32,000 nucleotides of DNA, taken from positions 585,010 to 617,009 of the forward strand of contig CAYHAA010000001.1 in assembly GCA_964354495.1 (NCBI GenBank), read 5' to 3'. The translations under genes and the position numbers were made by a program. The notes under the pieces were generated by a model. The model saw nothing but the letters and a program-made list of their open reading frames with translations. It ran no database searches and was not told the DNA's origin. This document shows positions 4,006 through 20,562 of the stretch, in pieces; position 1 is the first letter of the stretch; every line of letters begins with the position of its first letter. Source of the stretch: an uncultured archaeon. GTDB lineage: Archaea; Asgardarchaeota; Thorarchaeia; Thorarchaeales; Thorarchaeaceae.

Positions 4006-5198
4006 GAATCAAGGAATTCCAGGACATGATCTATGCCTGTGGACGCTGCAACTACTGCAGAGGACAAGACTTCAACGAACGATGCCCTGAGATTTTCACT
4101 CAGATTTGGGAGTCCTCTACGGGTCGGGGAAGGATGGCAATCGCTCGTGGAATTCTTGAGGGAAAGCTCGACTACTCAGAGGAGCTGGCAGAGCGAATCT
4201 TTGGCTGTTTTATGTGCGGCCGCTGCAGGGAGGAATGCAAGAAGGCCGCTAAGATTGATATCATAGCAATTACGAAAGCCATGAGAGCTGATTTTATTGA
4301 GCAAAGGGTGAAAATACCTGAAGGCGGTTCAAGCATGGTCAGTACTGCTCTTTCGAGTGGTAATATCTTTGCAGACTCACCTGCAGCTCATGCGAAATGG
4401 GCGGATGGCCTTGAGTTTGTCAAAGGTTCTGGGACTCTCTTCTTTCCAGGCTGCCTTGCAAGCCACAGATTCAAAGAGAAGACGAACATACTTGTTCGAT
4501 TGTTGCAGGCCGCTGGCTACGCCCTTGACTTCTTGGGCGATGATCAGACATGTTGTGGAACTCCGCTCTGGATAACGGGGCAGACAACGGATGCCAAGAA
4601 GTGGGCCCAAGGCTACCTCAGGAAATTGAAGAAGCATGGTGTCAAAGAGATAATCACTCCTTGTCCGAGCTGCTTTAGAGCGTTTGACGAGGAATATCCT
4701 CACTTGCTCGGTATGGAGAAGTTCCCAATTCGGGTCCGGCATACAAGTGAGATACTTGAGGAGATTGTGGAGAAGAAGAAGCTGAAGTTCAAGGTGTCCA
4801 TCGATAAGCGTGTTACCTATCATGATCCCTGCGAGATCGGTCGTTACAGGGGTATCTACGAACCTGCCCGAAGAGTCATCAAAGCACTGCCCGGTGTCGA
4901 TTTTGTTGAGATGGAGAGAAACAGAGCAGATGCATTCTGCTGTGGCGGTGGAGGTGCTGTAAAGATCACGTATGAGCACCACTCCAATACTGTGGCAGAG
5001 GAGCGGATTCGGGACTTCGTCCGTAGTGGAGCTGAGGTCATGAGTACGGTCTGTCCAGCCTGTGAGATGAATCTCACCCATGGCATATATGCTGCAGACG
5101 TACAAGCTCGTGTCCTGGATGTCGCAGAGCTGATGGCAGTGGCTGCAGGAATCGTGGACAGAGAGATTCTAGAAACAGACTATTTCCCCGAGGATTAG
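4002..5198 (+). CDS. Fe-S oxidoreductase with CCG domains (GlcF/HdrD-like)
   Basis: CGRCNYC and CFMCGRCREEC 4Fe-4S motifs; CCG, CPSC, YHDPC, CCGGGG and CPAC CCG-domain motifs. Overlaps the upstream stop (ATGA), indicating translational coupling. Confidence 0.9.
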   Translation: MRIKEFQDMIYACGRCNYCRGQDFNERCPEIFTQIWESSTGRGRMAIARGILEGKLDYSEELAERIFGCFMCGRCREECKKAAKIDIIAITKAMRADFIEQRVKIPEGGSSMVSTALSSGNIFADSPAAHAKWADGLEFVKGSGTLFFPGCLASHRFKEKTNILVRLLQAAGYALDFLGDDQTCCGTPLWITGQTTDAKKWAQGYLRKLKKHGVKEIITPCPSCFRAFDEEYPHLLGMEKFPIRVRHTSEILEEIVEKKKLKFKVSIDKRVTYHDPCEIGRYRGIYEPARRVIKALPGVDFVEMERNRADAFCCGGGGAVKITYEHHSNTVAEERIRDFVRSGAEVMSTVCPACEMNLTHGIYAADVQARVLDVAELMAVAAGIVDREILETDYFPED

Positions 5199-5244
5199 AC
5201 GGATGGCTCGATAGTCTACTGAGTCTTGGGGATTCACTTTCTCC

Positions 5245-5535
5245 TTATCCCCCGACCGCAGCAATCATAAAGACAATAAGGTCGCCCTTTGAAACCTTCG
5301 TGTTGATACCTTCACGAGCAACCATGTTCATGCCATTTACGAACACAATAGTGTCTCTTCTTAGAATCCTCTCTTGTTTGTCATCAAGATAGACCTCAAA
5401 GCGACTGCCATATTCTTCGTGAAGCTCTTTAATCAGATCCTCTATCGTTGAGCCTTCTCTTGTGTCGAATAGGAATTTGTTATGCTCTGAGTTCTTTAGT
5501 CCTTTATTCATCAGCTTCACAAAGACTTCGGTCAC
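5245..5535 (-). CDS. MoaD/ThiS/SAMP ubiquitin-like sulfur carrier
   Basis: 96 aa beta-grasp pattern (STIEDLIKEL, VFVNG, GDLIVF) ending in a C-terminal GG. Confidence 0.9.
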   Translation of the reverse strand: MTEVFVKLMNKGLKNSEHNKFLFDTREGSTIEDLIKELHEEYGSRFEVYLDDKQERILRRDTIVFVNGMNMVAREGINTKVSKGDLIVFMIAAVGG

Positions 5536-5731
5536 TTCTTGAGTTCACCACTCAATATTCAAATAGATTAACTTTAAATTAAGTTTGTCGGAATGGTAGT
5601 CATTGGATTAAGCCCACCCATGCATCTGATGCGACTTAGGGCGGGCAGTCGCAGAAGTGTGTTGAAGAGACCTCTTCTGCTATTAGCCAAAAAGCATATG
5701 TGTCCTTAAGTTGGGCAGCAAAGGGCAATGA

Positions 5732-6538
5732 TTGAGTCCAAGAACATCAACGATGGGTGCGATTGACTTGTCAAATGCGAAAGAGCGTAGGACTCTTAGA
5801 GAATGGTTAATGGAAAACGCACGCGAAAATCCCGTCCACTATAGGGAGATTGCTGAGGCGCTGGATAGGGATCCTGCTTCTGTTTCTGCATCGCTATCTA
5901 TTGAAAAGGCACAGGCTCAAGTTGATGGACGCCCTGCATATTTCCAAAGAGTTGCACCAGGTCTCTATAGGTTTAATGACCTCTGCGAGGGAGCAATCAC
6001 AGAACAGCAGATAGATGAGGATCTCAGGGAGAAAGCGCGAGCCAGCAAATTGGCAACACGTGCAGAGATGAATCAGGCAATCGCCAACTTGGATTTGGAT
6101 GGGTTCAGAGAACTTGCCGCTATCATCCTCATAAACATTCGAGTGAACCGAGATGATGTCCAAGAACGTGAACGCTATAACAACACTATCGTGTTTACAG
6201 GCAGCTGGCTTGATGATGGTGGCAGAGCTCCAGTTGTGTTCTATGCGAAGAAGTGTGGCCTTGATGAACCAATTGGCAGAGAAACGATTCTGGAGATACG
6301 AGGAGCGCTTCCGGTCTATGGAGCGAATCAGGGTGTTCTGATCTCAAATGGCATCTGCACATCTGATGCAACCCATGAAGCAGTTCAGCCGAATCTCATA
6401 GTGCCACCTATTCATATCATGGATAAGGAAATAATCATGAATGTATTGTTTGAAAGCAGGACCGGTGTCAAGTCTAGCAAGGTCGAAATATTCCTCCTCG
6501 ACACAGATTTCTTCAAGGCATTGATGCCTGAGGAATGA
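5732..6538 (+). CDS. HARE-HTH plus Mrr-like restriction endonuclease-fold protein, probably catalytically degenerate
   Basis: N-terminal PVHYREIAE...YFQRVAPGLYRF (HARE-HTH-like). C-terminal AKK..IGRETILEIRGAL..GVLISNG..IHIMD..LDTDFF matches the Mrr_cat layout. Confidence 0.65.
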   Translation: MSPRTSTMGAIDLSNAKERRTLREWLMENARENPVHYREIAEALDRDPASVSASLSIEKAQAQVDGRPAYFQRVAPGLYRFNDLCEGAITEQQIDEDLREKARASKLATRAEMNQAIANLDLDGFRELAAIILINIRVNRDDVQERERYNNTIVFTGSWLDDGGRAPVVFYAKKCGLDEPIGRETILEIRGALPVYGANQGVLISNGICTSDATHEAVQPNLIVPPIHIMDKEIIMNVLFESRTGVKSSKVEIFLLDTDFFKALMPEE

Positions 6539-6773
6539 ATGGACCGTCAGTGTCCGTGATGTTGTGAGTTGCCTCGTTTCGACTCTCATTCTCAGGGGTT
6601 TTCTGACTTCAGGGATACACCCATCCATCAATCACGTTCTTCTGGTTAAATATCCAAGTTTAATATGAAAAAAAGTAAACCCCTCAACTTAAATATCAGG
6701 GTATACACTGGCAAGTGCATCACGATACGATTCTTTCTTGTCGTGAGAGAGAAAATAAAGGAGAACAACAAAA

Positions 6774-8306
6774 TTGAGTGAGGACAAACTCCTCTTTGTT
6801 AGAGAGTCGTCCGGCCTAGTTAAGGAAGTAGGCACGGGCTTTGCTCTCCTCCTCCCAATTGCACTAACCTTGGGCCCGTGGTTCCACTATTTTGGTCCAC
6901 AGGTATCAACTTGGTATCCTGGTGCGCATCTTGTTCCGATGTATGCACTGGGTGCAGGAATTGTCTTCTTTGAAGCCCTTGCACTCATGTGTCTGATGCT
7001 CGCCATGCCAAGATCTGGAGCATCTTACCACTTCACTGGAAGAGGTCTGAGCCCCATTTTTGGTGTCATGGAAGGTTGGAGAAGTGTAATCACGAACCCT
7101 GTCTTCAGGGGAACTGGAAGCTTTTTCGCAGTACAGATCTTTGCTGGTGGTCTTGCTGTCATTGGCGCCGCAACGGGCAATGCTGGCTTAGTCAGCTTTG
7201 CAGCGACCCTCAGCACAGACATCATCTGGCTCTTCACAGCTGCTGTGTTGATGATTCTAGTAGGATTCGTCTTCGCCTACCTTAGTGTCAAATGGTTAGG
7301 CTGGTACGTAATCATCATTGGACTCGTCAACATTTTGGCTCTGCTAGTAGCTGATCTTGTCATGCTTGGAACACCAATGAGTCAGGCGGTCTGGGAGAGC
7401 TCGATGGGCGCTGGAACTTGGGCTCCCATAGCTGCTTTCGACAACTCAGCCTATGTGAACTTCAACTTTGGCGCAGTCGGCGGAGCACTTCTAATTACTG
7501 TTGGTGGTATGTGGCCATATCTCATCATGCCTGTAGCTGGTGAGGTCTCACAGCCGAGCAGGAATATTCCACTGAGCAATGTTGGTGGGTGGGCAGGTAT
7601 TGCCGTCTTCTTCTTGCTCTCTGGTTTCGCAGTTGAATCATGCATGGGTGGATATCTGTACGGTGTCAACATGGTTGGTGGTGTGTTCCCTGGTTTCGGT
7701 AACTATGCCGCAGTCATTCTTGGTGCCAACCCACTTGCTTGGTTTGTGATATTATGTCCCATCTTTGCAAGTTTGGGCGACTCACCTAGCAACGCACTGT
7801 GGGTCACTCGACCAATGCACAGCATGGCCATGGACAGATTCTGTCCTGAAGCATTTGCTCGTGTCCATCCGAAATACCACGTACCACACATCACACTGTA
7901 CTTCTGGTTGATTCTTTCGGTTGGTACCGTCGCATATGCAACAACTCTGCAGTACTTCTTTGGTACAGCTCTTGCCTCGCTGATTGGAGTGGCGTATACA
8001 TACGTCTTCATCAGATGGCAGATGGCTTTGGCAGCAATTTCGTTGCCATACTACAGACCGACCCTATGGGAACGGAGTGGAGGCTGGAAAGTCCTCGGCA
8101 TTCCATTGGTTTCTCTAGGTGGTATCGTGTCTGGTGCCGCGTTCTTCTGGGCAATCATTGCATACGTGCCATCGCTACCCTTTGAGGTTGCGTTCACGAT
8201 TGCTGTGTATCTGATTGGTCAGATCGCCTACATGTACTATGGAGCAAAGAACAAGGCTAAGGGCATTGAGATGTCCGCCATCTTTGGTCAACTCCCACCA
8301 GAGTAG
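6774..8306 (+). CDS. APC family amino acid/polyamine permease
   Basis: LFVRESSGLVKE N-terminus, MPRSGASY, AGEVSQPSRNIP, FARVHPKYHVP; about 12 hydrophobic helices. Confidence 0.9.
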   Translation: MSEDKLLFVRESSGLVKEVGTGFALLLPIALTLGPWFHYFGPQVSTWYPGAHLVPMYALGAGIVFFEALALMCLMLAMPRSGASYHFTGRGLSPIFGVMEGWRSVITNPVFRGTGSFFAVQIFAGGLAVIGAATGNAGLVSFAATLSTDIIWLFTAAVLMILVGFVFAYLSVKWLGWYVIIIGLVNILALLVADLVMLGTPMSQAVWESSMGAGTWAPIAAFDNSAYVNFNFGAVGGALLITVGGMWPYLIMPVAGEVSQPSRNIPLSNVGGWAGIAVFFLLSGFAVESCMGGYLYGVNMVGGVFPGFGNYAAVILGANPLAWFVILCPIFASLGDSPSNALWVTRPMHSMAMDRFCPEAFARVHPKYHVPHITLYFWLILSVGTVAYATTLQYFFGTALASLIGVAYTYVFIRWQMALAAISLPYYRPTLWERSGGWKVLGIPLVSLGGIVSGAAFFWAIIAYVPSLPFEVAFTIAVYLIGQIAYMYYGAKNKAKGIEMSAIFGQLPPE

Positions 8307-8320
8307 AATCTAGATCGTAT

Positions 8321-8359
8321 GAAGAGAGCCGCAAGCTCTCTTCTTCCCTTTTCTTTTTC
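8321..8359 (+). terminator. Hairpin plus U-rich tract, putative terminator of the APC permease
   Basis: GAAGAGAGC-CGCAA-GCTCTCTTC (9-bp stem, 8321-8343) followed by TTCCCTTTTCTTTTTC, 15 nt after the stop codon. Confidence 0.6.
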
Positions 8360-8399
8360 AGTCTGCAGCTCACTAGAACTCTTCAGGCCCGGAGATTAT

Positions 8400-9335
8400 C
8401 TACTGTTCTTCTTCTGGAAAGTCTGTGATGGGTGGGAACCTATTTCTGCTGGCCTTACTTGCGAAGGGCTCCAGCTTATCCCATGTCCTGTGAAATCTCG
8501 ACGGAAACGACCAAGGCCGAATGACAAGATATTCACGAACATTCTCTGAAGAGCTGTACTCATCTAGAGCCTTCTTTGCCTCTCGAGTGAAAACATGCCG
8601 CTGGTCATCATCTAAGACCTGTTGCTCAAACATATAGGCATCCTCTTTCCATATGTATTTGACCTGGATTTCGTCATTGTCTTCAACTATGCGATGCACA
8701 AGTCTCCAGGGCCAAAATGTGGACATCTGTTCAAGTTGTTCTCCGGCACCATAGAAGTCAACTGACATTCCCTCTCTGCAATAGACGTAGTCAGGACCGC
8801 GTTCTCCGAATTTCTTGTTTGGTTTGGCCATACGACCCTTTCTAACCCAGTCATAGAACTCTCCTCTTACTCTACTGTAGATCTCACAACGGTCAAGTAT
8901 GTATTTCACAGCTGCAGCTGTTCCATGGTGTGCTAGTCCAGGAAGTGAGGGTCGATCGAGTCGCTTCTCAATCAACTCCCGGACAGTTTGGATGTCTTCA
9001 GTAGGAATCGTCGTCCAGATTGGGAAAACCGCTCTCCCAAAAGGGACTGTGTGTAGAAATACGATTCCAGCTGTTCCTATCGGTTTCAGGCCTTCAAGCA
9101 GTTCCTCGTTGACTGGCCAAGTGTCTCCATTCTTACAATAATGGACCTCACTTACTTCGAAGGAAACCACTTCATCCCATTGTGCATCAAAGATTGCCTG
9201 ATACTCCTTTCTCTTCTGCTGGCGTGGAAGAATAAACCTCGCTTCTGAGGGATTTATCTGTATTTCTTGTCGTGCCTTGCTGAATGGGCAATTTCCAATG
9301 TATTCTACGTCAGGCAGTGTTTCTTCATCGGACAT
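8400..9335 (-). CDS. Hypothetical soluble protein, possibly tandem PH-like domains
   Basis: 311-aa ORF filling the gap, with an acidic N-terminus and no recognised family motif. Confidence 0.7.
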   Translation of the reverse strand: MSDEETLPDVEYIGNCPFSKARQEIQINPSEARFILPRQQKRKEYQAIFDAQWDEVVSFEVSEVHYCKNGDTWPVNEELLEGLKPIGTAGIVFLHTVPFGRAVFPIWTTIPTEDIQTVRELIEKRLDRPSLPGLAHHGTAAAVKYILDRCEIYSRVRGEFYDWVRKGRMAKPNKKFGERGPDYVYCREGMSVDFYGAGEQLEQMSTFWPWRLVHRIVEDNDEIQVKYIWKEDAYMFEQQVLDDDQRHVFTREAKKALDEYSSSENVREYLVIRPWSFPSRFHRTWDKLEPFASKASRNRFPPITDFPEEEQ

Positions 9336-9492
9336 GATATCATCACCGTTGTGAAGTCGCTCTCGGATATTCTGGAAACGGTTTGGCTGGTCAGCTTCAC
9401 ACGTACTTAAACGAGTTGGTTAATACCTCTATAAGAAATCAAAAGGGTTAAAGGTGCGAGACCTTGTGCCTCCCTGAAGAGGATTTCTCACG

Positions 9493-10194
9493 ATGAGCCA
9501 AAGTTCAAACCGAGAACGCGACTCTAAAGCGTCTCTCGATGACTTCGAGTTTGATCCAACCGAGCTGGATTTGAAGCAAAGCAAGAATCTATTGACGGTC
9601 CTTGATGGTTATCGAATCCAGAGAACATATGACCTCAGGTTTGTAGACAAAGCAATAAACAAGGGTGAAATGCCAAAGTCATTCATCCGTCAGTGGGGGA
9701 CCATCAGAGGACTTCTGCACAAGCTAGCTGCCATCGGTCCTAAGGTGCCCGGTGTGGAGTCTTGGCTGAATCGGAAGCAATACTTTGCCTTTCTATCTCT
9801 AGCAGTGATCACCATAGCGGCTCCAGTGCTCCTTCTTACGTGGGTGTTTCGATGGGCAGCGCTTCAGGATATTGCAATGCCCTTGGCGCTGCTTGCTGTG
9901 GGTCTAATGCTTGTGAATTTCCTATTATCATCATGGTATAATCGAAAGGTTGCGTGGGCGATATACTACTACCTAGAGGATAATCCGAATTTGGTTGCCA
10001 AAGAACGAGCCATTCTCAAAAAATGGGTTCAGAGTCTCATCCATCACACAGCAAGAGTGATGAGAAAGAGCGGAATCGATCCTAATAAGAATTTGATCAA
10101 GTTCTTCAACGACGACTATGTGGGGATAGAAGTACTCAAAGAGCCTGCTGGAATAAGGAAGAACTATGTTGTGAAACTCAAACTGACTATGTAG
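9493..10194 (+). CDS. Hypothetical membrane protein (two TM helices)
   Basis: 233-aa ORF with two adjacent hydrophobic segments (YFAFLSLAVITIAAPVLLLTWVF; IAMPLALLAVGLMLVNFLLSSW) and an upstream GAAGAGG. Confidence 0.75.
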   Translation: MSQSSNRERDSKASLDDFEFDPTELDLKQSKNLLTVLDGYRIQRTYDLRFVDKAINKGEMPKSFIRQWGTIRGLLHKLAAIGPKVPGVESWLNRKQYFAFLSLAVITIAAPVLLLTWVFRWAALQDIAMPLALLAVGLMLVNFLLSSWYNRKVAWAIYYYLEDNPNLVAKERAILKKWVQSLIHHTARVMRKSGIDPNKNLIKFFNDDYVGIEVLKEPAGIRKNYVVKLKLTM

Positions 10195-10258
10195 TCCGAG
10201 CCTACTCCTTCCATTTATCTTTTCCATGGCTGAGAAGGCCGTAGTGGGTTCTCACCCA

Positions 10259-11374
10259 CTAGACTATCTTCTCTATGGGTCTGTACTCGAGATCGAATCC
10301 GAAATGCCGCGGGCCTAAAACCTTCAAGCCCTCAGTGCCCCTGAAGATTGGTTCTGCCTTCATTCCAATGACGCTTACCTTATCGCCTTTTTTGATGTCC
10401 GTGTTAGTGATGGGCTCGCCACTCTTGGCATTTATTATCTCTATGATATCTGGACTTGTCATCCAGGGCTTTTCATCAAGCCATGTCATATGGTTCTCAT
10501 TCTTGAACCACACCTTGAATTTCTTACCTGGTTTGATTCCAGAACCCGTGATCTCAGTTTCTCCCCACATGTACCCCTCTCGATTCTCCCATGTCCTGCC
10601 TGTAACTACCCCTCTGAAAAGTATCCATCCTCCAACACTCTCAACAATCTTCTCAGCAGGATCATCTCCTGACTCTCTACAGTTTCGAATCATCTTCCCC
10701 ACTTTGTAGCTCTTTGTGAGAGTTCCTTTGATAATCGCATCATGAAAGTCTGATCCCTTGACTGGAAAGGCGACATTGCCAAGACGACCCCATGCCACTT
10801 CACTCAAAGCCTTCGAGATTCGCTCGCCCATCTCGTAGTTGATGACGTTCTGTACGATGCTCTTATTTCCAAACCAGTCAATGAGAGCCATGGGCGCCAT
10901 TGAGAAGCCCTTGATACAAACAGTATTCTGGCATATCTCAGGTACCGCTCTCCCTGAATAGTCTCCATCAACACAAGGAATGCCATGTTTGACAGCAGCA
11001 TCGATTGGCGCTGGCGTATTCACTCCACCTAGCTCAAAGGGAGCGACTGCTTTGAATTTGACGCTCATGAAATCCTCGAGTGCCGCCAAACCACTTGACA
11101 GCTCTTTCTCAAAATAGTCCCAGGGGTATCTCTTCCTTAGAGCTTCAATCTCGGGAGTAGGAGGTGCGATTGTCCCAGAATAGTATGGGCATGCAACCCA
11201 GTCACTCTCTTTTACTGTATTCACGTCAACGATCTCAATTGTCTGTCCTTTGTCTACATGAGGATACAGCATATTGAGACCAAGTTGTTTGGACCCACCG
11301 CCGCCAGTTCCAAAGAAGGTACATCCCGTTGTGAGGTCTTCCACATCAGTTTTTGTCTTTAATATAAGCGTCAT
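10259..11374 (-). CDS. DUF917 family protein (paralog A)
   Basis: GTGGGG, FELGGVNTPAP, VDGDYSGRAVPE, W..NE, PDII and GPRHFG DUF917 motifs. Confidence 0.88.
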   Translation of the reverse strand: MTLILKTKTDVEDLTTGCTFFGTGGGGSKQLGLNMLYPHVDKGQTIEIVDVNTVKESDWVACPYYSGTIAPPTPEIEALRKRYPWDYFEKELSSGLAALEDFMSVKFKAVAPFELGGVNTPAPIDAAVKHGIPCVDGDYSGRAVPEICQNTVCIKGFSMAPMALIDWFGNKSIVQNVINYEMGERISKALSEVAWGRLGNVAFPVKGSDFHDAIIKGTLTKSYKVGKMIRNCRESGDDPAEKIVESVGGWILFRGVVTGRTWENREGYMWGETEITGSGIKPGKKFKVWFKNENHMTWLDEKPWMTSPDIIEIINAKSGEPITNTDIKKGDKVSVIGMKAEPIFRGTEGLKVLGPRHFGFDLEYRPIEKIV

Positions 11375-11485
11375 TGTAAGCAGTCCCTTTCAGATTTGTT
11401 AAATCCGGTTTAAGCTCGCCAGTATATATTTCCAGCGGATGGTATCGAAATAAACATTTCACTCGTGCTGGTCATTCGTCTTACG

Positions 11486-11529
11486 AAAAAAAACATAGTG
11501 AGAGAAGAGGGTAACTTCGCTCTTCTCTC
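11486..11529 (-). terminator. Hairpin plus T8 tract, putative terminator of the metallophosphoesterase gene
   Basis: GAGAGAAGAG (11500-11509) pairs with CTCTTCTCTC (11520-11529), a 10-bp stem. It is followed on the minus strand by ACTATG and a T8 tract. Confidence 0.65.
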
Positions 11530-11542
11530 TCAGATTTGAGAA

Positions 11543-12484
11543 TTACAGTTCGACGCGACCGGCCTGGACCCTTCCATCCTCAATGGTGATGAGGAATGCT
11601 TTCAGAATACCTTCTCTGTATTCAGAACCTGGATTCACACATAGCGTTTTGCCAATGCTTCGGTAGCCAACGCTTTCGTGTATATGCCCATGCAAGCCCA
11701 ACAAAGGTTGATACTTCTCAATCACAGCTCGCACTGACTTGCTTCCGACAGGACCAATAATCTCCTGTGCACCAGATTTCTTCACCTTGTGCTCTTCATC
11801 AAGCGTCGGTGCGGTATCAAGACCGGAGTTGTACGGAGGATCATGGAAGTTGCATATGACATTGGAGTAGTCCTTTGTATCAAGGCGGGCGAATTCCTCT
11901 TCCAGTTTTCCGAGTAACTCCTCATCAGGACATTCTCTGGGCGTCTTCCAAGGAGTCTTACTTACCCATTCACAGCTAATCATGGGATATCCTCTCACAT
12001 CTATCACTCTCTTCAGAGGGTATATGACCTGAGGATCTTTCTTAATCACATCATCAATCATCCAACTATCATCGTTTCCAGGGTTCACAACAACCATCAC
12101 GTCTTTGGAAATCTTCTCGTTAGCCATCTTCATCCAGAGTTCCATTCGTCCAATCATCAGCTCCTCGAAGAGCTTGGTGACTGAACCAGGAGTTTCGCGA
12201 AGCTTGGCGAATTCGTCAGCAGTCATGATTCTTGGATAGTACCCCTCATCCATAGTGAACTTAGTGAAATGATCCAAGTCCTTCTGCTTCTTGAATTCCT
12301 TTCTCTTTCCCTGAGGTGAGGCATACCACCTATCCTCCTTCTCTTGGATTATTGGTACTATGGCCTTGCCAGTTAGGTCGCCGCACATCATGGCAACGTC
12401 CGCCTTGAATACAGTCGGCGCACGACACATTTTTTCCCATGTCTGTTGACTGCCATGAGGGTCAGCCGCTAAGAAAATTCTCAT
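11543..12484 (-). CDS. Calcineurin-like (Icc-related) metallophosphoesterase
   Basis: DPHGS, GDLTGK, PGNDD, FHDPP and LHGHIHES motifs. Likely start is MRIFL at 12484; the ORF track start is 12526. Confidence 0.88.
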   Translation of the reverse strand: MRIFLAADPHGSQQTWEKMCRAPTVFKADVAMMCGDLTGKAIVPIIQEKEDRWYASPQGKRKEFKKQKDLDHFTKFTMDEGYYPRIMTADEFAKLRETPGSVTKLFEELMIGRMELWMKMANEKISKDVMVVVNPGNDDSWMIDDVIKKDPQVIYPLKRVIDVRGYPMISCEWVSKTPWKTPRECPDEELLGKLEEEFARLDTKDYSNVICNFHDPPYNSGLDTAPTLDEEHKVKKSGAQEIIGPVGSKSVRAVIEKYQPLLGLHGHIHESVGYRSIGKTLCVNPGSEYREGILKAFLITIEDGRVQAGRVEL

Positions 12485-12596
12485 CTTGTTACCTCGACTT
12501 GTTCTCTCTGCCTGGAGTTGAAACACTCCCTGCTCAGATTGTTCTTTGCGTGTAAATCGGATTTAAAATCCTAATGGTACAACACAATTGGCACTT

Positions 12597-12608
12597 TAAA
12601 CATGTTTA
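12597..12608. promoter_or_regulatory. 12-bp perfect palindrome between back-to-back TATA-like boxes of divergent genes
   Basis: TAAACATGTTTA, overlapping TTTAAA (12595-12600) and TTTATAAA (12605-12612). Confidence 0.35.
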
Positions 12609-12720
12609 TAAAAAACACAGTCAGGACACAAGATATTAATGTCAATATGTTTTCGGAGTGATTGCAACTGAGTCCTCACAATTTGAGGTGACATGGCTAT
12701 TGACAGGCAAATATGGACCA

Positions 12721-13500
12721 ATGAACGACGACTTCATGCAAGAAGCACTGAGAATTGAGAGAGCTGCCGCAGATAATGACATCCCTCTCCGTATAATAGG
12801 GTGTCTTGCATTCAGGCTGAAGAGCCCTGAATTCACGGATCTTCACATCAGGATGGGACGGCAAGTCACAGATATCGATTTCATCTCGTATTTCAAATAC
12901 CAGAGCAAGCTGGTGAAACTGTTCAGAGATGGACTTGGTTACTATTGGGTGCCCCCAGGTTTCGCCAGAGCAAGCAGTCTACGAGACCTTTTCATCGACC
13001 AACAGCGCAACAGGAAAATAGATGTATTCTACGACCATTTGGATTTCAGCCACAATATCGATTTTACCAAGAAGAAGAGACTCGAAGCCGACAAGCCCAC
13101 CATTCCTTTGGCTGAGTTGTTCCTTGAGAAGACGCAAATCCTAGAAATCAATGCCAAAGATCTGAAGGATTTGGTGATCACTTTCTTGGCGCACGATATT
13201 AGTGATACCTTCGATGACACGCACGTAAACGGTCGCTATATTGCAGATCTGCTCTCGGATGATTGGGGTTTCTACTACACTGCTACAGAGAACATCAAGA
13301 AATTGATTGACTTTGTTCCAACAATCAATGAGATCACACAAAAACAGAAGGACTTGGTTATTGCGCGTGCCCAGAAGATGCGAAAACTGATAGAGGATAC
13401 GCCCAAGACTCGGGCGTGGAAGAACCGTGCAGCGGTCGGCACAAAGAAGCGCTGGTATAAGTTCGTGCATTCGATGGAAGGAACACGGTCCGCAGAATAG
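12721..13500 (+). CDS. Uncharacterised nucleotidyltransferase-fold (Pol beta superfamily) protein
   Basis: LRIIGCLAF (G-G/x-A helix), TDIDF (DxD), IDVF (third Asp) and LLEK-like LFLEK. Likely ATG at 12721; the ORF track start is 12658. Confidence 0.65.
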   Translation: MNDDFMQEALRIERAAADNDIPLRIIGCLAFRLKSPEFTDLHIRMGRQVTDIDFISYFKYQSKLVKLFRDGLGYYWVPPGFARASSLRDLFIDQQRNRKIDVFYDHLDFSHNIDFTKKKRLEADKPTIPLAELFLEKTQILEINAKDLKDLVITFLAHDISDTFDDTHVNGRYIADLLSDDWGFYYTATENIKKLIDFVPTINEITQKQKDLVIARAQKMRKLIEDTPKTRAWKNRAAVGTKKRWYKFVHSMEGTRSAE

Positions 13501-13519
13501 AATGTCGAGGCGTATTGAA

Positions 13520-14638
13520 ATGAAGCTAACAAGAGAGAATGCATATGATATGCTAATCGGTGTCGGGATACTTGGCACGGGCGGCGGGGGCGATCCAGTG
13601 TCATTTGGCAGGCCTCTCGTTGACTGGGACTATCAAAGAGGTAGAACATACGAGATTGTTGACCCTGCTCGTATCAAGGACGATGCCTTTATTGTATGCG
13701 GAGGATACATGGGTTCTGTCAATGTCTTCAAGTCAATCGGCGATATGTTGCAGAGCTGGGAGAGTAGATTTGAACTCCATGAGGCAATGAAGATCTCTGA
13801 GCGAATCACAGGGAAGAAAGTGAACCACTTGGTTCCCTTTGAGCTCGGAGGAACAAATACGACTGTGATGCTGTCTCTAGCTGCTCGAGCGGGAATAACA
13901 ACGGTCGATGGCGATGGACTTGGTCGTTCTGCTCCAGAAACACAAATGATCTCTTTTGTTGGCTACGGTATTGAGCTCTGCCCGATGCCAGTTGTTTCAA
14001 AGAATGGAAGTGTCATCATTGTTGACAAGACTACATCTCCGGCACTTGCTGATGAAATTGGTCGTTTCGCAGTAGTACAAGATGGCGGTGTTGGAGCGAA
14101 TAACCACTACTACCAATCTGGCAAGCAGCTGAAGAAGGCAGTGATTCCTAATAGCATCTCCAAGTCAATTGAACTAGGAAGTGCTATTCGTGATGCAAAT
14201 GACAATAAGCGTAACCCAATCGATGCATTCTTGGATATAATGGGTGGACGAGTTCTCACTCATGGCATTATCGAAGAAGTGAAGGGTGAAGATCGTGCAG
14301 GTCACTGGCACGTGCAGGTGCGAATTAAGCCCGAGGACCTCCGAGGTAGTTTTGAGCTCGTAGTCAAGAACGAGTACATGATGGCTCTCTGCGACGGCAA
14401 GCCTGTCGTGATGTTCCCGGACCTCATATGCATGCATGACCCGAAGACTGGTCACGGTGTGATGAGTGCAAGTCTGAAGAAAGGACTCAAGGTCGTCGTG
14501 ACAGCGGTTCCAGCGCATGAGCGACTTCGTTATGCTGGTAGCACTCCAATTGGAAAGAAGGCATTCTCTCCTGAACGCTATGGGCATCCCGAGCTCGAGT
14601 ATAGACCCATGGAAGACATTATTGGGCGGCTTCACTAG
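13520..14638 (+). CDS. DUF917 family protein (paralog B)
   Basis: GTGGGGDP, FELGGTNT, VDGDGLGRSAPE, KNE, FPDLI and SPERYG motifs. Likely start is MKLTRE at 13520. Confidence 0.88.
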   Translation: MKLTRENAYDMLIGVGILGTGGGGDPVSFGRPLVDWDYQRGRTYEIVDPARIKDDAFIVCGGYMGSVNVFKSIGDMLQSWESRFELHEAMKISERITGKKVNHLVPFELGGTNTTVMLSLAARAGITTVDGDGLGRSAPETQMISFVGYGIELCPMPVVSKNGSVIIVDKTTSPALADEIGRFAVVQDGGVGANNHYYQSGKQLKKAVIPNSISKSIELGSAIRDANDNKRNPIDAFLDIMGGRVLTHGIIEEVKGEDRAGHWHVQVRIKPEDLRGSFELVVKNEYMMALCDGKPVVMFPDLICMHDPKTGHGVMSASLKKGLKVVVTAVPAHERLRYAGSTPIGKKAFSPERYGHPELEYRPMEDIIGRLH

Positions 14639-14694
14639 TTCTGTGAGTTGCCCTAACGTCCTGCCATGGGACACCATAGGAGTAGAGATACAAC

Positions 14695-15459
14695 TTGACA
14701 AAACTAGCATTAATTGGTGCAACAGGTACCGATTGGTGGGTCGACCCAAAAAAGAAGTCCTTCGTTCTGTCCTTTGCTCCCAAGGGCTGCGAGATTGGCA
14801 ATTTCACACCTCGATATGGTACTCACAGTGTTGAGTCACACGTTGACGAAGCCTACAACGCTCCATTCATTCTCGAGCAGGTTGTGAGGGCGAACAAAGA
14901 AGGCTACGATGTCATCGTTATTGATTGCGCATGTGATCCCATTCTAGATGCAGCAAGAGAGATTTCGAAGATTCCTGTTCTGGCTCCAAGAAATACGGCT
15001 CTTCATCTCGCACTAACACTGGGAACGAAGTTTGGAATCGTCACAGTGCAAGGAGACTCACTAAAACGGTGCATGGAGTCTGGGGTCAGAAGTGAAGGTC
15101 TAGAGTCATTCTGTGCTGGTGTTCGATTTCTGAAAATACCAGTTCTCGATATTGCCAAACGTCCTGACGAAGCTCAGAAAGAGCTTCTCTCCATGTGCAA
15201 GAAGCTCATAGAAGAGGATGGAGCCAACGTCATAATCCTTGGTTGCACGGCTCTGTCTCATGAAGTGGATTTGAAGCCAATAATGGCTAGGCTTGGGGTA
15301 CCGGTAATTGATCCTTGGGTAGTAGCAGTGAAGACTGCCTTCATGCTTGTTGAAGCAGGACTTTCGCATAGTAAAGTGGCCTATCCTTCTCCTCCTCTAA
15401 AACAGGTCAACGAGGACCCTTCAATCAAAGGTGCATTCGATGGTTATCTCGTCAAATGA
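14695..15459 (+). CDS. Asp/Glu/hydantoin racemase family protein (hydantoin/allantoin racemase-like)
   Basis: IDCACDP and ILGCTAL catalytic cysteine pair, AAREISKIPV, LGVPVIDP, and C-terminal SKVAYPSP. Confidence 0.88.
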   Translation: MTKLALIGATGTDWWVDPKKKSFVLSFAPKGCEIGNFTPRYGTHSVESHVDEAYNAPFILEQVVRANKEGYDVIVIDCACDPILDAAREISKIPVLAPRNTALHLALTLGTKFGIVTVQGDSLKRCMESGVRSEGLESFCAGVRFLKIPVLDIAKRPDEAQKELLSMCKKLIEEDGANVIILGCTALSHEVDLKPIMARLGVPVIDPWVVAVKTAFMLVEAGLSHSKVAYPSPPLKQVNEDPSIKGAFDGYLVK

Positions 15460-16704
15460 TTAGTCCCCTGTCTGCCGCTTCGATCTGCGAAGCAGAGGGA
15501 TCATAAAGAGAAGAACTATGGCTGATAGTACAGCACACATGACAAACGGATACACCGGAGAGATATCCCAAATATAGCCTCCCACCATCGGACCAAGGAA
15601 GAGACCTACTCCTCCCATGCTCTCAACAAGCCCGGCATGTCCTCCCTTTTCATCCTCCGTGGCTGATACAATCAGGTATAGAGCTCCTAGATAGCTGAAT
15701 CCGACAGCTATACCCGAAATGGCCATAGCCAATCCCCAGACCCACATGTTGTTGACCGTGAATATCATTACAGATGAAATAGCGGAGAGAGCTGCACCTG
15801 CGACTATCACGTTGCCCATCGACCTCTCTGGCAGACGTGCGCAGACTATGAAGGCTAGGGTCCTTACGAAATTCCAAATCATGAGAAGATTCCCAAAATC
15901 CTCTGTAAGATAGCCCAGTCCCTGAACATAACGGGGCAAGAGTGCAAGGATTACTGTGGATACTACGCCCCATAGGGCTATTGATAGATATGACGCGATG
16001 AATCTTGCACTTGTCTTTGAGTGGACTGGTCTAGGTCTGTCCGCTGTCTTCCGTCTCTCTCGAAAGATTGTCTTCATTCTGTAGTTTTGCATCATTGCTC
16101 CAATGATTCCCAAGGACACAAACTCGACAGCAATGATCACGTATATGCTTGAAAAGACTCCATACGCACCTGTAACGTATCCAATCAGGAATGGACTGAT
16201 TATCATGCCCGCACTCCATGATGTGGAGAAGTTGCCTAGTGTCACTGACTGAGATTGAGGCGATAGTTCTGCGACCATTCCTTCAATGGATGGTGCAATG
16301 AATCCATAGACAACTCCCTCTAGGGCACGGATGATGATCAGGTGTATTGGCGTACTGCTTAGGGGATACAGAATGAGAACCCCGATATAGGCCACGCTGG
16401 CGATCAACAGAGAGGTCTTTCTCCCTATTCGATCTGAGATTTTTCCACCAATCGATGGTGAGAGCATATACACAAGACCAAAGGACCCCATGGCAAGACC
16501 CGCAAGGAATCCGGATCCCCCAAGTTCCCCAGTGTACCATGGTGCAAAAATCTCTGTTGTCCCTAGAGTAAGTGTCACCAAGAATGTTATCACATAACCG
16601 ACAAGACGGTTCTTTCTCTTGGCAATCGAAGGGAGGTCAGGCTCCCCGTCTACGTCTAGGCAGAACATCTCTGTTGTCTCGGAAATATCGGCCATGATTT
16701 CCAT
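15460..16704 (-). CDS. MFS transporter
   Basis: GKISDRIGRK (MFS motif A) and RALEG; about 12 TM helices. Confidence 0.9.
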   Translation of the reverse strand: MEIMADISETTEMFCLDVDGEPDLPSIAKRKNRLVGYVITFLVTLTLGTTEIFAPWYTGELGGSGFLAGLAMGSFGLVYMLSPSIGGKISDRIGRKTSLLIASVAYIGVLILYPLSSTPIHLIIIRALEGVVYGFIAPSIEGMVAELSPQSQSVTLGNFSTSWSAGMIISPFLIGYVTGAYGVFSSIYVIIAVEFVSLGIIGAMMQNYRMKTIFRERRKTADRPRPVHSKTSARFIASYLSIALWGVVSTVILALLPRYVQGLGYLTEDFGNLLMIWNFVRTLAFIVCARLPERSMGNVIVAGAALSAISSVMIFTVNNMWVWGLAMAISGIAVGFSYLGALYLIVSATEDEKGGHAGLVESMGGVGLFLGPMVGGYIWDISPVYPFVMCAVLSAIVLLFMIPLLRRSKRQTGD

Positions 16705-16728: not shown

Positions 16729-17736
16729 TCAATGGAGGTGCGGTGTCACTTCCTTGGCAAGTATTCTTGCTGTCTTCACCGGGTCAGTACCTGGCACAGG
16801 GAAAGCTACCAAGGTGTTCGCACCGGCATCGATGAACTCCTGCAATCGCTTGATACATGATTCGACATCTCCGACTACACCTAGTGTCTGTACCATTTTG
16901 TCGGTGAGCAACTCACCAACATCTTTGCCTGCCTTCTCTGCTTCTTCGAAAGCGTGAGTATCCTCTTCTGTGATGTCTGCGTAATGCATGAGCGGTCCCC
17001 CTGGCTGTGAGTGAGGCACGTAAAGCTTCATGAGACCCCGTGCAAGATTGAGTGCCTTGTCATGGTCATCATCGATGACCATGGGTAGGTATGAGACCAT
17101 CTCGAACTTGGTCAGAGACTTACCCACCTTGTCAGCACCCTCTTTCACTCTATCCCACGCGAACTTGATGTAACCCGGAGTGCTGAAGATAGACAAGATT
17201 GCACCGTCACCAACCTCACCCGTGAGTTGGAGACCCATCTTGCCCTCAAATGCCAAATAGATTGGAGGATTCTTCCTCACGGGCTTGAAGATGAGTTGAA
17301 TGTCCTTTGCTGCAAAGAAGTCCCCTGTATATGTGATCTTTTCACCAGTGAGAATCATCCTGATGAGCTCTACGCACTCCCTTGTTCTCGTAAGAGGTTT
17401 CTTGACATCAAACCCCATCTGAGACATCCAGTAGGGCACTCCAGAACCGAGTCCGAAGACCATTCTCTTGTTGCTCATCTCATCAAGTGTGCCAAACTCC
17501 ATCGCTGTTAAGGCAGGATGACGTGAGTAGGGGTTCACAACGCCTAGGCCAATCCTTACCTTCTCTGTTGCCATAGCCGCAGCAGCTAGATACGGAACTC
17601 CGCCACGAAAGAAATAGTCTTCAGCAAACCATACCGATTTGAGACCTGCTTTCTCTGTTGCTACAGCCATATCTACTGCTTCTCTGACAGGGAATACTCC
17701 TGTCATTGCCAGTCCAAGTTCTTTGAAACCTTTCAT
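16729..17736 (-). CDS. LLM-class flavin/F420-dependent oxidoreductase (Mer-like)
   Basis: WFAED, ATEKVRIGLGVVNPYSRHPA, GLGSG, PPIYLA and GEVGDG motifs. Confidence 0.88.
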   Translation of the reverse strand: MKGFKELGLAMTGVFPVREAVDMAVATEKAGLKSVWFAEDYFFRGGVPYLAAAAMATEKVRIGLGVVNPYSRHPALTAMEFGTLDEMSNKRMVFGLGSGVPYWMSQMGFDVKKPLTRTRECVELIRMILTGEKITYTGDFFAAKDIQLIFKPVRKNPPIYLAFEGKMGLQLTGEVGDGAILSIFSTPGYIKFAWDRVKEGADKVGKSLTKFEMVSYLPMVIDDDHDKALNLARGLMKLYVPHSQPGGPLMHYADITEEDTHAFEEAEKAGKDVGELLTDKMVQTLGVVGDVESCIKRLQEFIDAGANTLVAFPVPGTDPVKTARILAKEVTPHLH

Positions 17737-17811
17737 TCAAATCGTTCTCCGCATCTATGGATATTCCGCTATTCTCACCATATAAGAGAAAGAAGAGGAG
17801 AAGTATCTCCT

Positions 17812-19737
17812 CTATTCCTCAGGAAGTTTCTTCATCTTTCCAAGATAGTCCGCTACGTCTTTCAAGCCCAGCTTCACTAAAGTACTCTTCTTTGGCCAGC
17901 TTGTTTCTTTGTCCCATTCGTGAAGTTCGTAGTAACGGTCGAGCATTCCATCAAGCTCTTCCGGGGAATTCATTGCACCCTTCAAAGGTCCTGAGGCTGC
18001 TCCTTCATGCATAAGACGCCAAGGCAGATTATCGTGGGCTCGCGTCGCACCTCTAGTGACGTTGAATGCCTTCTCCAAGTTACATACACGTCGTCCAGTC
18101 TGCATCATCTCCTCCTCTGTTAGTTCGATTCCCGTTGCGGCCGCATAGAGTCTTGCCATGTTGTCAGGATTCACACCGAATGCTGCTGTTGAAGTGAACA
18201 CACAGAAACCCAGTGCCTCAGTGATTTCATAGCAGTCCTCGTGCCATCTGACAATCTCTGCCCGATATTCTGTGAAGTGAGGAGATGCCCACTTCTTGTT
18301 TCCAGTTATCTTCTCGATGACAGCTACCGCTTCTGGACTTGTGCCAAACTCAGCGAAGGTCTCTGTCATCAAGTGATCATTGCCCCGTGGATTCACAGCA
18401 AAAGCGAGGGAGTACGCTTTTGCAGACCGCGTCTCTACGTTGGATTGTTCTAACCCTTTTGCGTTCATGATTGCCCATTTGTATGAGTCTTGACCGACCT
18501 TCTTTGTCGCAATCTTGAGGCCATCGCCCAGCAAGTTACCAAGCTTGCCCTTCCTGAAGGCAAGTGCATCTATCAACTTAAGCAACTCAGGCAGCTTGCC
18601 CCAGTCTAAGTCAAGTCCATTCGTGTCCTTCTTAGTTAGAACGCCCCTCAAATAGCTCTCAATTGCCCACTGCGCAACACCGCCCGCCGTGATGGTGTCG
18701 AGGCCGAGTCTATTGCACATCTCATTTGCCAACAGCACGCCTTCTGTGTTTACAATTCCAGGACCGTTGCCAAGAGCACCGAAGGTTTCGTATTCGGGAC
18801 CGCCGCTAGCAATGCCTGCATTCGGCCCTTTATCTATTGTAGAGTACCGGTGGCATCCAATCGTACAACCAAAACATGCCACTCTCCGTTTCAGATACCC
18901 TCCAGTATTGAGTGCCTGCCCAGTAAGCGGAAAGACATTCTCTGTGTACCCAGTCTGCCAGTTCCTACCCGGAAAGGCATGAAGTTCATTCACTCCAGCT
19001 ACGGATGCCGATGTTCCAAACTCATGAAGACCCTGCGCGCCACTGTCAGCTCTTAGATTCTCTCGCATCTCCTCCGCAATCTTGGCGAATTTCGCAGGAT
19101 CTTTGACTCGTACTGGATGTGTCCCTTTCACACAGATAGCCTTGAGCTTCTTCTTGCCCATGACTGCTGCTCCTCCGCCTCGCCCAGCTGCATGAAATAG
19201 CGAGCATTGAATAGAAGCTGCGCGAACAAGATTCTCCCCCGCTGGCCCAATATACAGACCTCTGGAGTCATCTCCATGCCATTTCTTCAGTAGCTTGTCG
19301 GTTTCGATGATGTCCTTGCGCCAGAGTCTCTTTGCATCCAAGACCTCTACTAGCCCATCCTGAATATGAATGTAAACTGGCTCCTCTGCCACGCCATGCA
19401 CAACGAGATGGTCATATCCAGCATACTTTAGCTCTGCACCCCAATGGCCTCCGGTATTACTCTTCAGATAGAGACCAGTGGTGCACCCACCTGTTGTTAC
19501 TGATGTTCTTCCTGATGCAGGAGCAGTTGTTCCTGTTACAGCTCCAGGTGCAAAGATGATAATGTTCCTCGGATCATCCCAAGTGATTTCAGGGTCCTTG
19601 CAGTAGTCCCATAGAATCCTTGCATTGATGCCTCTTGAACCAACGTACAACTTGCGCCATTCTTCAGGGAGTTCTTCTACCCAGCTCTTTCTCTTGCCAA
19701 TATCTACGTGTAGTATCTTTCCTTGATGACCGTACAA
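17812..19737 (-). CDS. aor: Tungsten-containing aldehyde:ferredoxin oxidoreductase family protein
   Basis: GGHWGAELKYAGYD, YIGPAGEN, AGRGGGAAVMGKKKLKAI, CFGCTIGC, GPEYET, CNRLGLD, GFCVF and YYELHEWD motifs. Confidence 0.93.
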   Translation of the reverse strand: MYGHQGKILHVDIGKRKSWVEELPEEWRKLYVGSRGINARILWDYCKDPEITWDDPRNIIIFAPGAVTGTTAPASGRTSVTTGGCTTGLYLKSNTGGHWGAELKYAGYDHLVVHGVAEEPVYIHIQDGLVEVLDAKRLWRKDIIETDKLLKKWHGDDSRGLYIGPAGENLVRAASIQCSLFHAAGRGGGAAVMGKKKLKAICVKGTHPVRVKDPAKFAKIAEEMRENLRADSGAQGLHEFGTSASVAGVNELHAFPGRNWQTGYTENVFPLTGQALNTGGYLKRRVACFGCTIGCHRYSTIDKGPNAGIASGGPEYETFGALGNGPGIVNTEGVLLANEMCNRLGLDTITAGGVAQWAIESYLRGVLTKKDTNGLDLDWGKLPELLKLIDALAFRKGKLGNLLGDGLKIATKKVGQDSYKWAIMNAKGLEQSNVETRSAKAYSLAFAVNPRGNDHLMTETFAEFGTSPEAVAVIEKITGNKKWASPHFTEYRAEIVRWHEDCYEITEALGFCVFTSTAAFGVNPDNMARLYAAATGIELTEEEMMQTGRRVCNLEKAFNVTRGATRAHDNLPWRLMHEGAASGPLKGAMNSPEELDGMLDRYYELHEWDKETSWPKKSTLVKLGLKDVADYLGKMKKLPEE

Positions 19738-19740
19738 CTT

Positions 19741-20232
19741 TCATGCAACCTCCTTCTTGATATCTTTGTAAGCAGCCATTCTGGCTGATCGAAGTTTTTT
19801 CTTCTGAGTGAACAACTCATCTGTCCTTTTCACCCACTGTAGAGCACCAGGAACGCAATGCTTGACGCAGTAAGGATCTCCTCCGCAGAGATTGCATATC
19901 AGGGGTACACCAGTTTCAGGATGGGACCTAATGCCATGGTATGGACAGGCCTCGACACAGGATCCGCATTGTGTGCATATCTCCATGTCAACCGTGATGA
20001 TTCCTGTTTTGGCATCTCTTGAGAGTGCCCCATCTGGGCATGCCTTAATACATGGATGCGCTTCACATTGTTCGCAAAGAAGAGGAACACCCAGTGCGAT
20101 TTCCTCCTTCTTCAGAATCTTGATCCTTCCTCGAGCTGGATCGAAGAGGTCTTCTTTGATGAGTGAACATGCAAGGCTGCACTGCTTACAACCCGTGCAT
20201 TTGTCCATATCAACAAGCAGCAGTTTTTCCAT
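19741..20232 (-). CDS. 4Fe-4S dicluster electron-transfer subunit (AorA/DmsB-like)
   Basis: CTGCKQCSLAC, CEQC..HPC..ACP, CTQCGSCVEACP and CNLC..DPYCVKHC motifs. Ends 3 nt before aor. Likely start is MEKLL at 20232. Confidence 0.92.
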   Translation of the reverse strand: MEKLLLVDMDKCTGCKQCSLACSLIKEDLFDPARGRIKILKKEEIALGVPLLCEQCEAHPCIKACPDGALSRDAKTGIITVDMEICTQCGSCVEACPYHGIRSHPETGVPLICNLCGGDPYCVKHCVPGALQWVKRTDELFTQKKKLRSARMAAYKDIKKEVA

Positions 20233-20562
20233 ATCTTTTCCTTCCAATGGCCAGTTGTTAAAGCATGTTTAGTATCTTCGGGGCCTATTTTAATCCTGCC
20301 CTTCCCGTTCTGTTCGTTAAAACATATCGGCGCACCAGTGATGCCATGGAAATGACGCGTAGACTCCCTTGACGCATTCCAAGTGAGTATCAGTATGACC
20401 AAGAAAAACGGTAGAAACGTGCTTGTCAGAAGCAATTTAAGATTCATCTTCATCTCTTTAACAATTGAGAGGTAACTCTGTACGAGTCCTAGCATAACAT
20501 TCGTCACGCCACAAAGCAATGAGTTTTAAGACGCAGGGAAGTTTCACATTCTGTGTATCACT

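Follow-up and report, generated by a model that had tools for sequence, protein, structure and literature searches.

A permease, phosphoesterase and nucleotidyltransferase module joined to DUF917 and racemase genes in a Thorarchaeota genome

DUF917 proteins form a large family in which only two activities have been named, both recently. Among the described systems nearest to the locus studied here, hydantoin-utilisation clusters combine the racemase HyuE with a hydantoinase, a carbamoylase and an NCS1 permease such as Mhp1, and GlnD follows a uridylyltransferase/uridylyl-removing logic. We compared these systems with a locus in a Thorarchaeota (Asgard) metagenome-assembled genome (GCA_964354495.1; 3.3 Mb, 51 contigs, 97.7% complete). 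The window, a 32,000-nucleotide stretch of contig CAYHAA010000001.1 (positions 585,010–617,009), contains five genes in two divergent arms, which a preliminary description of the DNA had picked out as a mirror-image module: a DUF917 gene (A) and a metallophosphoesterase (MPE) gene facing away from a nucleotidyltransferase (NTase) gene, a second DUF917 gene (B) and a racemase gene. All five open reading frames (ORFs) were found where they had been described, in the order DUF917-A ← MPE ← / → NTase → DUF917-B → racemase.

We lean slightly towards regarding this mirror module as the core of a larger composite conserved cluster, spanning approximately 143–16704 of the window, for uptake and breakdown. 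Its central part comprises the five genes, the region between the arms and two further genes, encoding a permease and a two-transmembrane (2-TM) protein:

6774–8306, plus strand: APC-superfamily permease (PF00324, 49 bits; homologous to cluster F3).
9493–10194, plus strand: 2-TM membrane protein (c9), with two hydrophobic helices near residues 97–148.
10259–11374, minus strand: DUF917 paralogue A, clade A, of the S-Me-THD-like fold family (Pfam, tree).
11543–12484, minus strand: calcineurin-like MPE (motifs, model, Foldseek).
12485–12657: divergent intergenic region, AT-rich, with TATA-like boxes on both strands (sequence).
12658–13500, plus strand: Pol-beta-fold NTase, of a family without a Pfam model (motifs, model, VIA-align).
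13502–14638, plus strand: DUF917 paralogue B, clade B (Pfam, tree).
14695–15459, plus strand: two-Cys hydantoin/allantoin-type racemase (PF01177, 3qvj, 5lfd).

An NTase alignment was scanned against one genome per prokaryotic species, giving at least 568 loci, of which the best 80 were analysed. These came from Asgard archaea (Thor, Hermod, Odin and Njord lineages), Bathyarchaeia, Thermoplasmata, Chloroflexota, Actinomycetota, Proteobacteria and Thermodesulfobacteriota. An MPE gene shared the locus in 74 of the 80, and the two genes often abutted or overlapped, in either relative orientation. Clustering of flanking ORFs recovered an APC-superfamily permease of ~530 residues in 57 of 66 non-syntenic NTase loci and a 2-TM protein in more than 20 loci; the latter is a single ~230-residue protein in archaea, and in bacteria an analogous 2-TM protein with a small soluble protein, sometimes fused. 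Homologues of the window's c9 protein adjoin the permease, MPE and NTase genes in at least 10 loci outside Thorarchaeia, and the window itself encodes both of these extra members. The NTase and MPE thus belong to a wider permease module, usually without DUF917 or racemase, and the five genes do not stand as the self-contained unit that had been proposed. We recognise the APC permease, MPE and NTase genes, often with the 2-TM gene, as a widespread predicted module that is undescribed; a literature search found no description of this neighbourhood. The NTase family extends to 1522 representative clusters at E ≤ 1e-3 and reaches at least eight copies per genome in Bathyarchaeia. Ten Bathyarchaeia genomes of ~2 Mb each held eight or more scored copies, which for a family without annotation is an unusually high number of paralogues. 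Genes for Gln-synt_C proteins of the gamma-glutamyl-amine ligase type directly flank the MPE, permease and NTase genes at L093, L098 and L073 (Actinomycetota, Proteobacteria, Solirubrobacterales; the loci compared carry L numbers), with an AllG-like gene also at L093 and a GFA gene also at L098.

In one of its archaeal branches, the module has been combined repeatedly with DUF917 and a hydantoin/allantoin-type racemase. Outside Thorarchaeia, L060, L121 and L123 hold a clade-B DUF917 gene together with NTase, MPE, APC, 2-TM, GlcD-like and CCG genes in shuffled order, the GlcD-like/CCG pair beside the module showing 36–42% identity; none of these three clade-B loci has a racemase gene. L121 and L123 additionally carry RraA-like and URO-D (MtaA-like) genes, with corrinoid-protein genes; RraA-like homologues adjoin DUF917-B in L121, L123 and L160, and in L123 DUF917-B is followed immediately by a corrinoid-protein gene and an MtaA-like gene. 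The window has the RraA-like, URO-D, GlcD-like and CCG set too (143–5198). Four Bathyarchaeia loci (L063, L171, L172 and L173), each with a different order, combine a clade-C or C-like DUF917 gene and a racemase gene with NTase, MPE, APC and 2-TM genes. In an NTase tree (FastTree, midpoint root), NTases linked to DUF917 outside Thorarchaeia formed one 13-member clade (support 0.89), and all linked NTases fell within a subtree of 26 of the 78 sequences. The preliminary description had tied its case to gene order conserved in other genomes. What recurs in Bathyarchaeia, without synteny to Thorarchaeia, is the same set of six families, in shuffled order. These non-syntenic recurrences support a functional link of DUF917, racemase, NTase and MPE, and their shuffled, independent occurrence argues that the link is real but facultative.

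On our best reading of this gene content, the cluster would serve to import and break down an amino-acid derivative that is chiral, N-heterocyclic and possibly methylated. The compound brought in by the APC permease would be cyclic, chiral and rich in nitrogen, an amino-acid derivative of hydantoin, thiohydantoin or lactam type that may bear a methyl group; in the DUF917 variants it would be a five-membered N-heterocycle. The racemase would equilibrate its stereocentre, and the DUF917 enzymes would open the ring or remove its sulfur with no need of an ATP-dependent HyuA/HyuB hydantoinase. The GlcD-like, RraA-like and MtaA-like neighbours would process the products, with the GlcD-like and RraA-like proteins handling hydroxy or oxo acids. 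A (thio)hydantoin appears a plausible substrate. Genes near the module for MtaA-like and corrinoid proteins, for DAO + GCV_T and for a glutamine synthetase (GS)-like amine ligase hint at a methylated amine or amino-acid derivative; the DAO + GCV_T genes, which are sarcosine/dimethylglycine dehydrogenase-like, adjoin the module in Chloroflexota.

Several findings weigh against such a pathway. Of 301 Bathyarchaeia genomes searched, 91 yielded the NTase, 49 yielded DUF917 and only 21 yielded both (NTase alone in 70, DUF917 alone in 28); NTase and DUF917 genes were adjacent in at least four of the 21 genomes with both. Most NTase/MPE/permease modules have neither DUF917 nor racemase nearby, and the enzymes flanking them vary (GS-like ligases, DAO + GCV_T, aminotransferase + FGGY, CN-hydrolase, luciferase-like (LLM) proteins). 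DUF917-A and DUF917-B reach 50 and 78 bits against thiohydantoin desulfurase cut-offs of 440–450 bits, and an N-carbamoyl-amino-acid amidohydrolase was not seen in the window. Within Thorarchaeia, synteny covers the whole 20-kb region, from CCG to DegT.

The NTase matched nothing in Pfam or NCBIfam, even at E = 10, and gave chance-level matches only against PDB sequences, whether searched as a single sequence or as a profile. One NTase homologue matched NTP_transf_5 at E = 0.076, and PF14907 occurred in 19% of one Atlas cluster. Fold and motifs confirmed the earlier assignment as a Pol-beta-type NTase. Across 50 homologues the G..DxD..D pattern (G38, D62, D64 and D112) was invariant or nearly so, and further invariant residues lay in the C-terminal helical domain (K148, Q150, K157, D158, D161, W193, R247, W256 and Y257). 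The predicted model (pLDDT 91) was matched by VIA-align to ANT(2'')-Ia (Z 12.3), MenT1 (12.0), JHP933 (10.9), TglT (10.6) and LnuA (10.5); 5uvd (within the range Z 10.5–12.3) and MenT4 were also among the matches, and CD-NTases stood far down the list. As Foldseek against the PDB gave an E of only ~1e-3, the fold assignment rests on VIA-align and the motifs. The true start of the NTase is probably 12688 or 12700.

The MPE scored 24.8 bits in Pfam, under the cut-off of 27, and its identity as a calcineurin-like phosphoesterase was likewise borne out by fold and motifs. The metal-binding motifs DxH, GD, GNDD, H and GHxH (D9, H11, G36-D37, G137-N138-D139-D140, H215, H268 and H270) were invariant or nearly so in an alignment of 40 homologues. 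The predicted model (pLDDT 96) matched aq_1956 (2yvt, E 2e-11) and TT1561 (1uf3, E 6e-9) in Foldseek, and a helical insertion of ~90 residues separates motifs II and III. Translation most likely starts at ATG 12484, within an ORF called at 11543–12526 on the minus strand. In one Thorarchaeota metagenome-assembled genome (MAG; L046, 5839–6785) the MPE gene was matched in two overlapping pieces, which suggests a frameshift or assembly error. A complex prediction for MPE and NTase with both alignments scored 0.00, which is no answer and counts neither way.

Together, the NTase and MPE would perform a step that depends on nucleotides and is linked to the permease, and this step could take two forms. 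The imported compound might be transiently nucleotidylylated and the phosphodiester then cleaved, which the likeness of the NTase to ANT(2'') and LnuA favours, or a protein of the module might be reversibly nucleotidylylated, as a writer/eraser switch. A broader and rather unlikely proposal is that APC permease, 2-TM protein, MPE and NTase make up a new, widespread nucleotide-dependent solute-uptake system. In it, nucleotidylylation would either trap or activate the compound ahead of its cleavage or, if reversible, gate the permease. Such a system would have diversified into many specificities among Bathyarchaeia, Asgard archaea and Chloroflexota, and its Thorarchaeia version would be coupled to ATP-independent ring opening by DUF917.

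The best-surviving alternative to a dedicated pathway is a regulatory pair, in which the NTase would place a reversible nucleotide mark on a pathway enzyme, the 2-TM protein or the permease, to be taken off again by the MPE, so that uptake is gated by nutrient status and DUF917 and racemase are one payload of many. We consider this possible, if on the unlikely side. The permease, NTase and MPE stay constant, often with the 2-TM protein, and the catabolic genes on either side differ greatly from lineage to lineage; this variety favours a writer/eraser switch, and a generic or regulatory role for the NTase and MPE fits it better than one shared chemistry does. Bathyarchaeia genomes with up to eight or more paralogous modules point the same way, as does the presence of the macromolecule modifiers MenT1, MenT4 and TglT among the structural neighbours, and GlnD offers an analogy of an NTase with a removing hydrolase. 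Set against this, the best structural match, ANT(2''), is a small-molecule enzyme and LnuA ranks high too, a target residue or sensor domain is not evident, and the nearest relatives of the MPE, aq_1956 and TT1561, are uncharacterised.

Returning to the DUF917 proteins of the preferred catabolic cluster, both are full-length: PF06032 and PF20906 scored 137 and 178 bits for A and 127 and 133 bits for B (gathering cut-off 27 bits), and the motifs GTGGGG, FELGGxNT and VDGDxxGRxxPE, noted earlier, are present in both. They are the only DUF917 genes in the whole genome, share 28% identity across 335 residues (E 1e-39) and both matched structure 2o3i (E 1e-7 to 1e-8). Against the equivalog models for thiohydantoin desulfurase (NF058529, cut-off 440 bits) and S-methyl thiohydantoin desulfurase (NF058532, 450 bits), A scored 50 and 38 bits (C-terminal half only) and B 50 and 78 bits, far under the cut-offs, so neither is an equivalog of these enzymes. 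The most likely start of DUF917-B is ATG 13502, not 13427, so that a single nucleotide separates it from the NTase stop codon, and DUF917-B is predicted to be translationally coupled to the NTase gene.

A maximum-likelihood tree (quick IQ-TREE run) split the DUF917 proteins into clades A, B and C at SH-aLRT 99–100 (clade A 99, clade B 100), and these ancient separate clades agree with the earlier view that A and B are diverged and not recent duplicates. Clade A holds the Thorarchaeia paralogue A with orthologues from Desulfurococcaceae, Thermoplasmata and Firmicutes (44–50% identity). Clade B holds paralogue B with orthologues from Bathyarchaeia and from Baldr- and Odin-labelled MAGs (53–57%). 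Clade C holds the second DUF917 of L033 and L037 and the DUF917 of L063 and L173, with that of L171 nearest to these. Elsewhere, clade-A genes occur with a racemase gene, and two of the three contexts (the archaeal ones) also have a clade-C DUF917 and an NCS1 permease; neither NTase nor MPE lies beside clade-A DUF917 in the three contexts outside Thorarchaeia.

The racemase matched PF01177 at 135 bits, and its nearest solved relatives are 3qvj (E 3e-28) and the allantoin racemase 5lfd (E 2e-20). Both catalytic cysteines align to those of solved racemases (motifs DC(A)CDP and LGC), confirming a two-Cys enzyme of the hydantoin/allantoin type. With both of these cysteines, the invariant motifs of the MPE and the invariant carboxylates of the NTase in place, all three enzymes look active. 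Outside Thorarchaeia the racemase accompanies A- or C-clade DUF917, not clade B. The idea that it feeds two DUF917 enzymes has the recurrent DUF917/racemase pairing for it and the lack of a racemase beside clade B elsewhere against it.

No hydantoinase had been seen in the window, and this was borne out: neither HyuA (PF01968) nor HyuB (PF02538) scored over cut-off in the window or in the whole genome (97.7% complete). At L171 (7435–10938), DUF917, a 527-residue HyuA-like protein and a racemase are encoded in a row, directly beside an NTase/MPE pair; the HyuA-like protein has Hydant_A_N and Hydantoinase_A domains and is caprolactamase-alpha-like, without a HyuB, and DUF917 may replace the HyuB subunit there. 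An ergothioneine-type pathway was considered and rejected, as the single urocanase/aromatic ammonia-lyase pair is off-contig and looks like an ordinary hut pair; these urocanase and histidine ammonia-lyase family genes adjoin on another contig (C12, 79463–82954). The core of the earlier inference, that these families act together on an undescribed substrate, stands, and it does so on the non-syntenic recurrences. Co-occurrence of DUF917 and hydantoin racemase is already in the literature, in cyclodipeptide-oxidase clusters where DUF917 was suggested as a hydantoinase (bioRxiv 10.1101/2023.09.25.559410), and the link to the NTase, MPE and permease was not found described. Literature searches for a thiohydantoin desulfurase and for a hydantoin racemase in Thorarchaeota gave nothing.

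We regard as unlikely the original model, a self-contained five-gene pathway for a (thio)hydantoin, with the racemase supplying two DUF917 enzymes or an A/B heteromer. It gains from the position of the genome's only two DUF917 genes on either side of the NTase/MPE pair, from the hydantoin/allantoin type of the racemase and its recurrent pairing with DUF917, and from DUF917 genes that lie paired elsewhere (clades A and C, 4–5 kb apart, in L033 and L037; two clade-C genes in L173). The two paralogues also part company: B occurs without A in L060, L121, L123 and the Thorarchaeia lineage L051, and A without B in L033–L038 (Desulfurococcaceae and Firmicutes included). In L051, a deeper Thorarchaeia lineage, DUF917-A is absent between the 2-TM and MPE genes, and NTase, DUF917-B and racemase are retained. 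This loss and the separate phyletic partners argue against an obligate A/B heteromer and against a closed five-gene unit. The missing racemase at other clade-B loci, the much wider permease partnership of the NTase and MPE, and the low desulfurase scores also count against the original model.

Within Thorarchaeia the five-gene layout was present in every locus examined, from several genera, with NTase identities of 57–94%; all 14 loci retrieved around the DUF917-B gene from the genus and family retained it, and DUF917-B was found in 47 of 76 family genomes. Because the entire region is syntenic there, this conservation proves little alone. The two arms share an intergenic region of about 170–200 bp, for which a common promoter had been suggested. 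Its sequence is AT-rich, with TATA-like boxes facing both ways. The layout and the shared promoter are specific to Thorarchaeia and are broken in two species (L022 and L065), where the permease-to-MPE block is inverted and the shared promoter is lost. In both of these species the inversion puts an Mrr-type gene immediately upstream of the NTase. Other Thorarchaeia (L018, L023 and L055–L059) have a second permease/2-TM/MPE/NTase copy, 40–50% identical to the first and without DUF917. That copy sits between URO-D and FAD-oxidase genes, which are adjacent in the window (2469/2623), so it is missing from this genome.

The syntenic stretch from CCG to DegT also allows that the permease/MPE/NTase and DUF917/racemase cassettes merely became neighbours in the Thorarchaeia ancestor and were kept together by synteny only, and either cassette does occur alone in many other genomes. 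This is very unlikely, as at least seven loci outside Thorarchaeia bring these families together in different orders and with DUF917 of different clades, and as the NTase and DUF917-B genes lie 1 nt apart. A defence or toxin–antitoxin role, with the NTase as a MenT/AbiEii-like toxin or cyclic-nucleotide synthase and the MPE as its antagonist, would suit the likeness of the NTase fold to MenT1 (Z 12.0), TglT and JHP933, but has a negligible chance of being right: PADLOC models matched none of NTase, 2-TM and DUF917 and gave the MPE only a 40-residue generic-motif match (PDC-S10), the genes alongside encode a permease and catabolic enzymes rather than antitoxins or effectors, and the locus keeps a stable, syntenic place that bears no signs of mobile elements.

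The remaining genes of the composite cluster and its surroundings are:

143–820, plus strand: RraA-like gene of the HMG-CHA aldolase/oxaloacetate decarboxylase family (PF03737, 111 bits; NCBIfam aldolase/decarboxylase relatives below cut-off).
1318–2469, minus strand: URO-D family, MtaA/CmuA-like methyltransferase-like gene (PF01208, 108 bits; MtaA/CmuA matches weak, below cut-off).
2623–5198, plus strand: GlcD-like FAD oxidase (2623–4005) and CCG/Fe-S subunit (4002–5198), genes overlapping (PF01565, PF02754; GlcD-, GlpC- and HdrD-like).
5732–6538: Mrr-type restriction-endonuclease domain gene, between the CCG and permease genes.
8400–9335, minus strand: 311-residue protein with no detectable family, Thorarchaeia only, between the permease and 2-TM genes and on the opposite strand.
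15460–16704, minus strand: MFS transporter (PF07690, 124 bits), convergent with the racemase and syntenic in Thorarchaeia, with a putative link to the pathway.
16729–20247: F420-type luciferase-like oxidoreductase (Mer-like, below cut-off), aldehyde:ferredoxin oxidoreductase and 4Fe-4S protein, after the MFS gene.

The Mrr-type gene is syntenic across Thorarchaeia at 53–93% identity, and the 311-residue protein is syntenic across Thorarchaeia loci at 45–93%; the latter had no Pfam, NCBIfam or PADLOC match, and the Atlas gave no reliable lead. The genes at 16729–20247 are also syntenic across Thorarchaeia. Luciferase-like genes adjoin the NTase in two Bathyarchaeia loci (L087 and L088), and for this reason the LLM gene of the window may belong to the pathway.

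The association with racemase, permease and NTase–MPE genes gives handles on the substrates of DUF917 proteins. The NTase family, with ~1500 representative clusters and no Pfam model, is almost always accompanied by members of a single MPE family and a single APC-permease family, and Bathyarchaeia and Asgard archaea have it in multiple copies. Knowledge of these sediment lineages comes mainly from genomes, and how they metabolise organic nitrogen and methyl compounds has been deduced almost wholly from clusters of this kind. The module is widespread, has clear limits and lends itself to testing; once its function is solved, thousands of genes would gain an annotation, and a new coupling of nucleotides to solute uptake could come to light.

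Compared with known systems, the DUF917 proteins resemble the DUF917/S-Me-THD-like family in having both Pfam domains at full length, the glycine-rich, ELGG and DGDxxGR motifs and the 2o3i match. They differ from thiohydantoin desulfurases in setting, being without ergothioneine-pathway neighbours and linked to the NTase, MPE and permease module. The locus is like hydantoin-utilisation clusters in its two-Cys racemase, and clade-A orthologues elsewhere keep company with a racemase and, in two of three cases, an NCS1 permease. It is unlike them in that this genome has no dihydropyrimidinase-type or HyuA/HyuB hydantoinase, the window has no carbamoylase, and the permease of the window is of the APC and not the NCS1 type.

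The NTase shares a minimal Pol-beta core and a helical C-terminal domain with ANT(2'')-Ia (4xje: Z 12.3, rmsd 3.3, 154 residues aligned), LnuA (4wh5: Z 10.5) and MenT/AbiEii (DUF1814; MenT1, 8an4: Z 12.0). Its identity to these is only 11–15%, it has extra invariant C-terminal residues, and it partners a permease and an MPE, not resistance or toxin–antitoxin genes. The MPE has the fold and metal-ligand motifs of aq_1956 and TT1561 (Metallophos_2/_3), but differs in its ~13–16% identity, its ~90-residue helical insertion and a motif III of GNDD rather than GNH[DE]. GlnD is comparable by analogy only: an NTase is paired with a phosphohydrolase that might reverse its product, beside a nitrogen-compound permease, but here the two are separate proteins, an MPE stands in place of the HD domain and there is no PII-like target. 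Measured against all of these, the locus is a catabolic cluster of known superfamilies that holds an undescribed, very widespread module.

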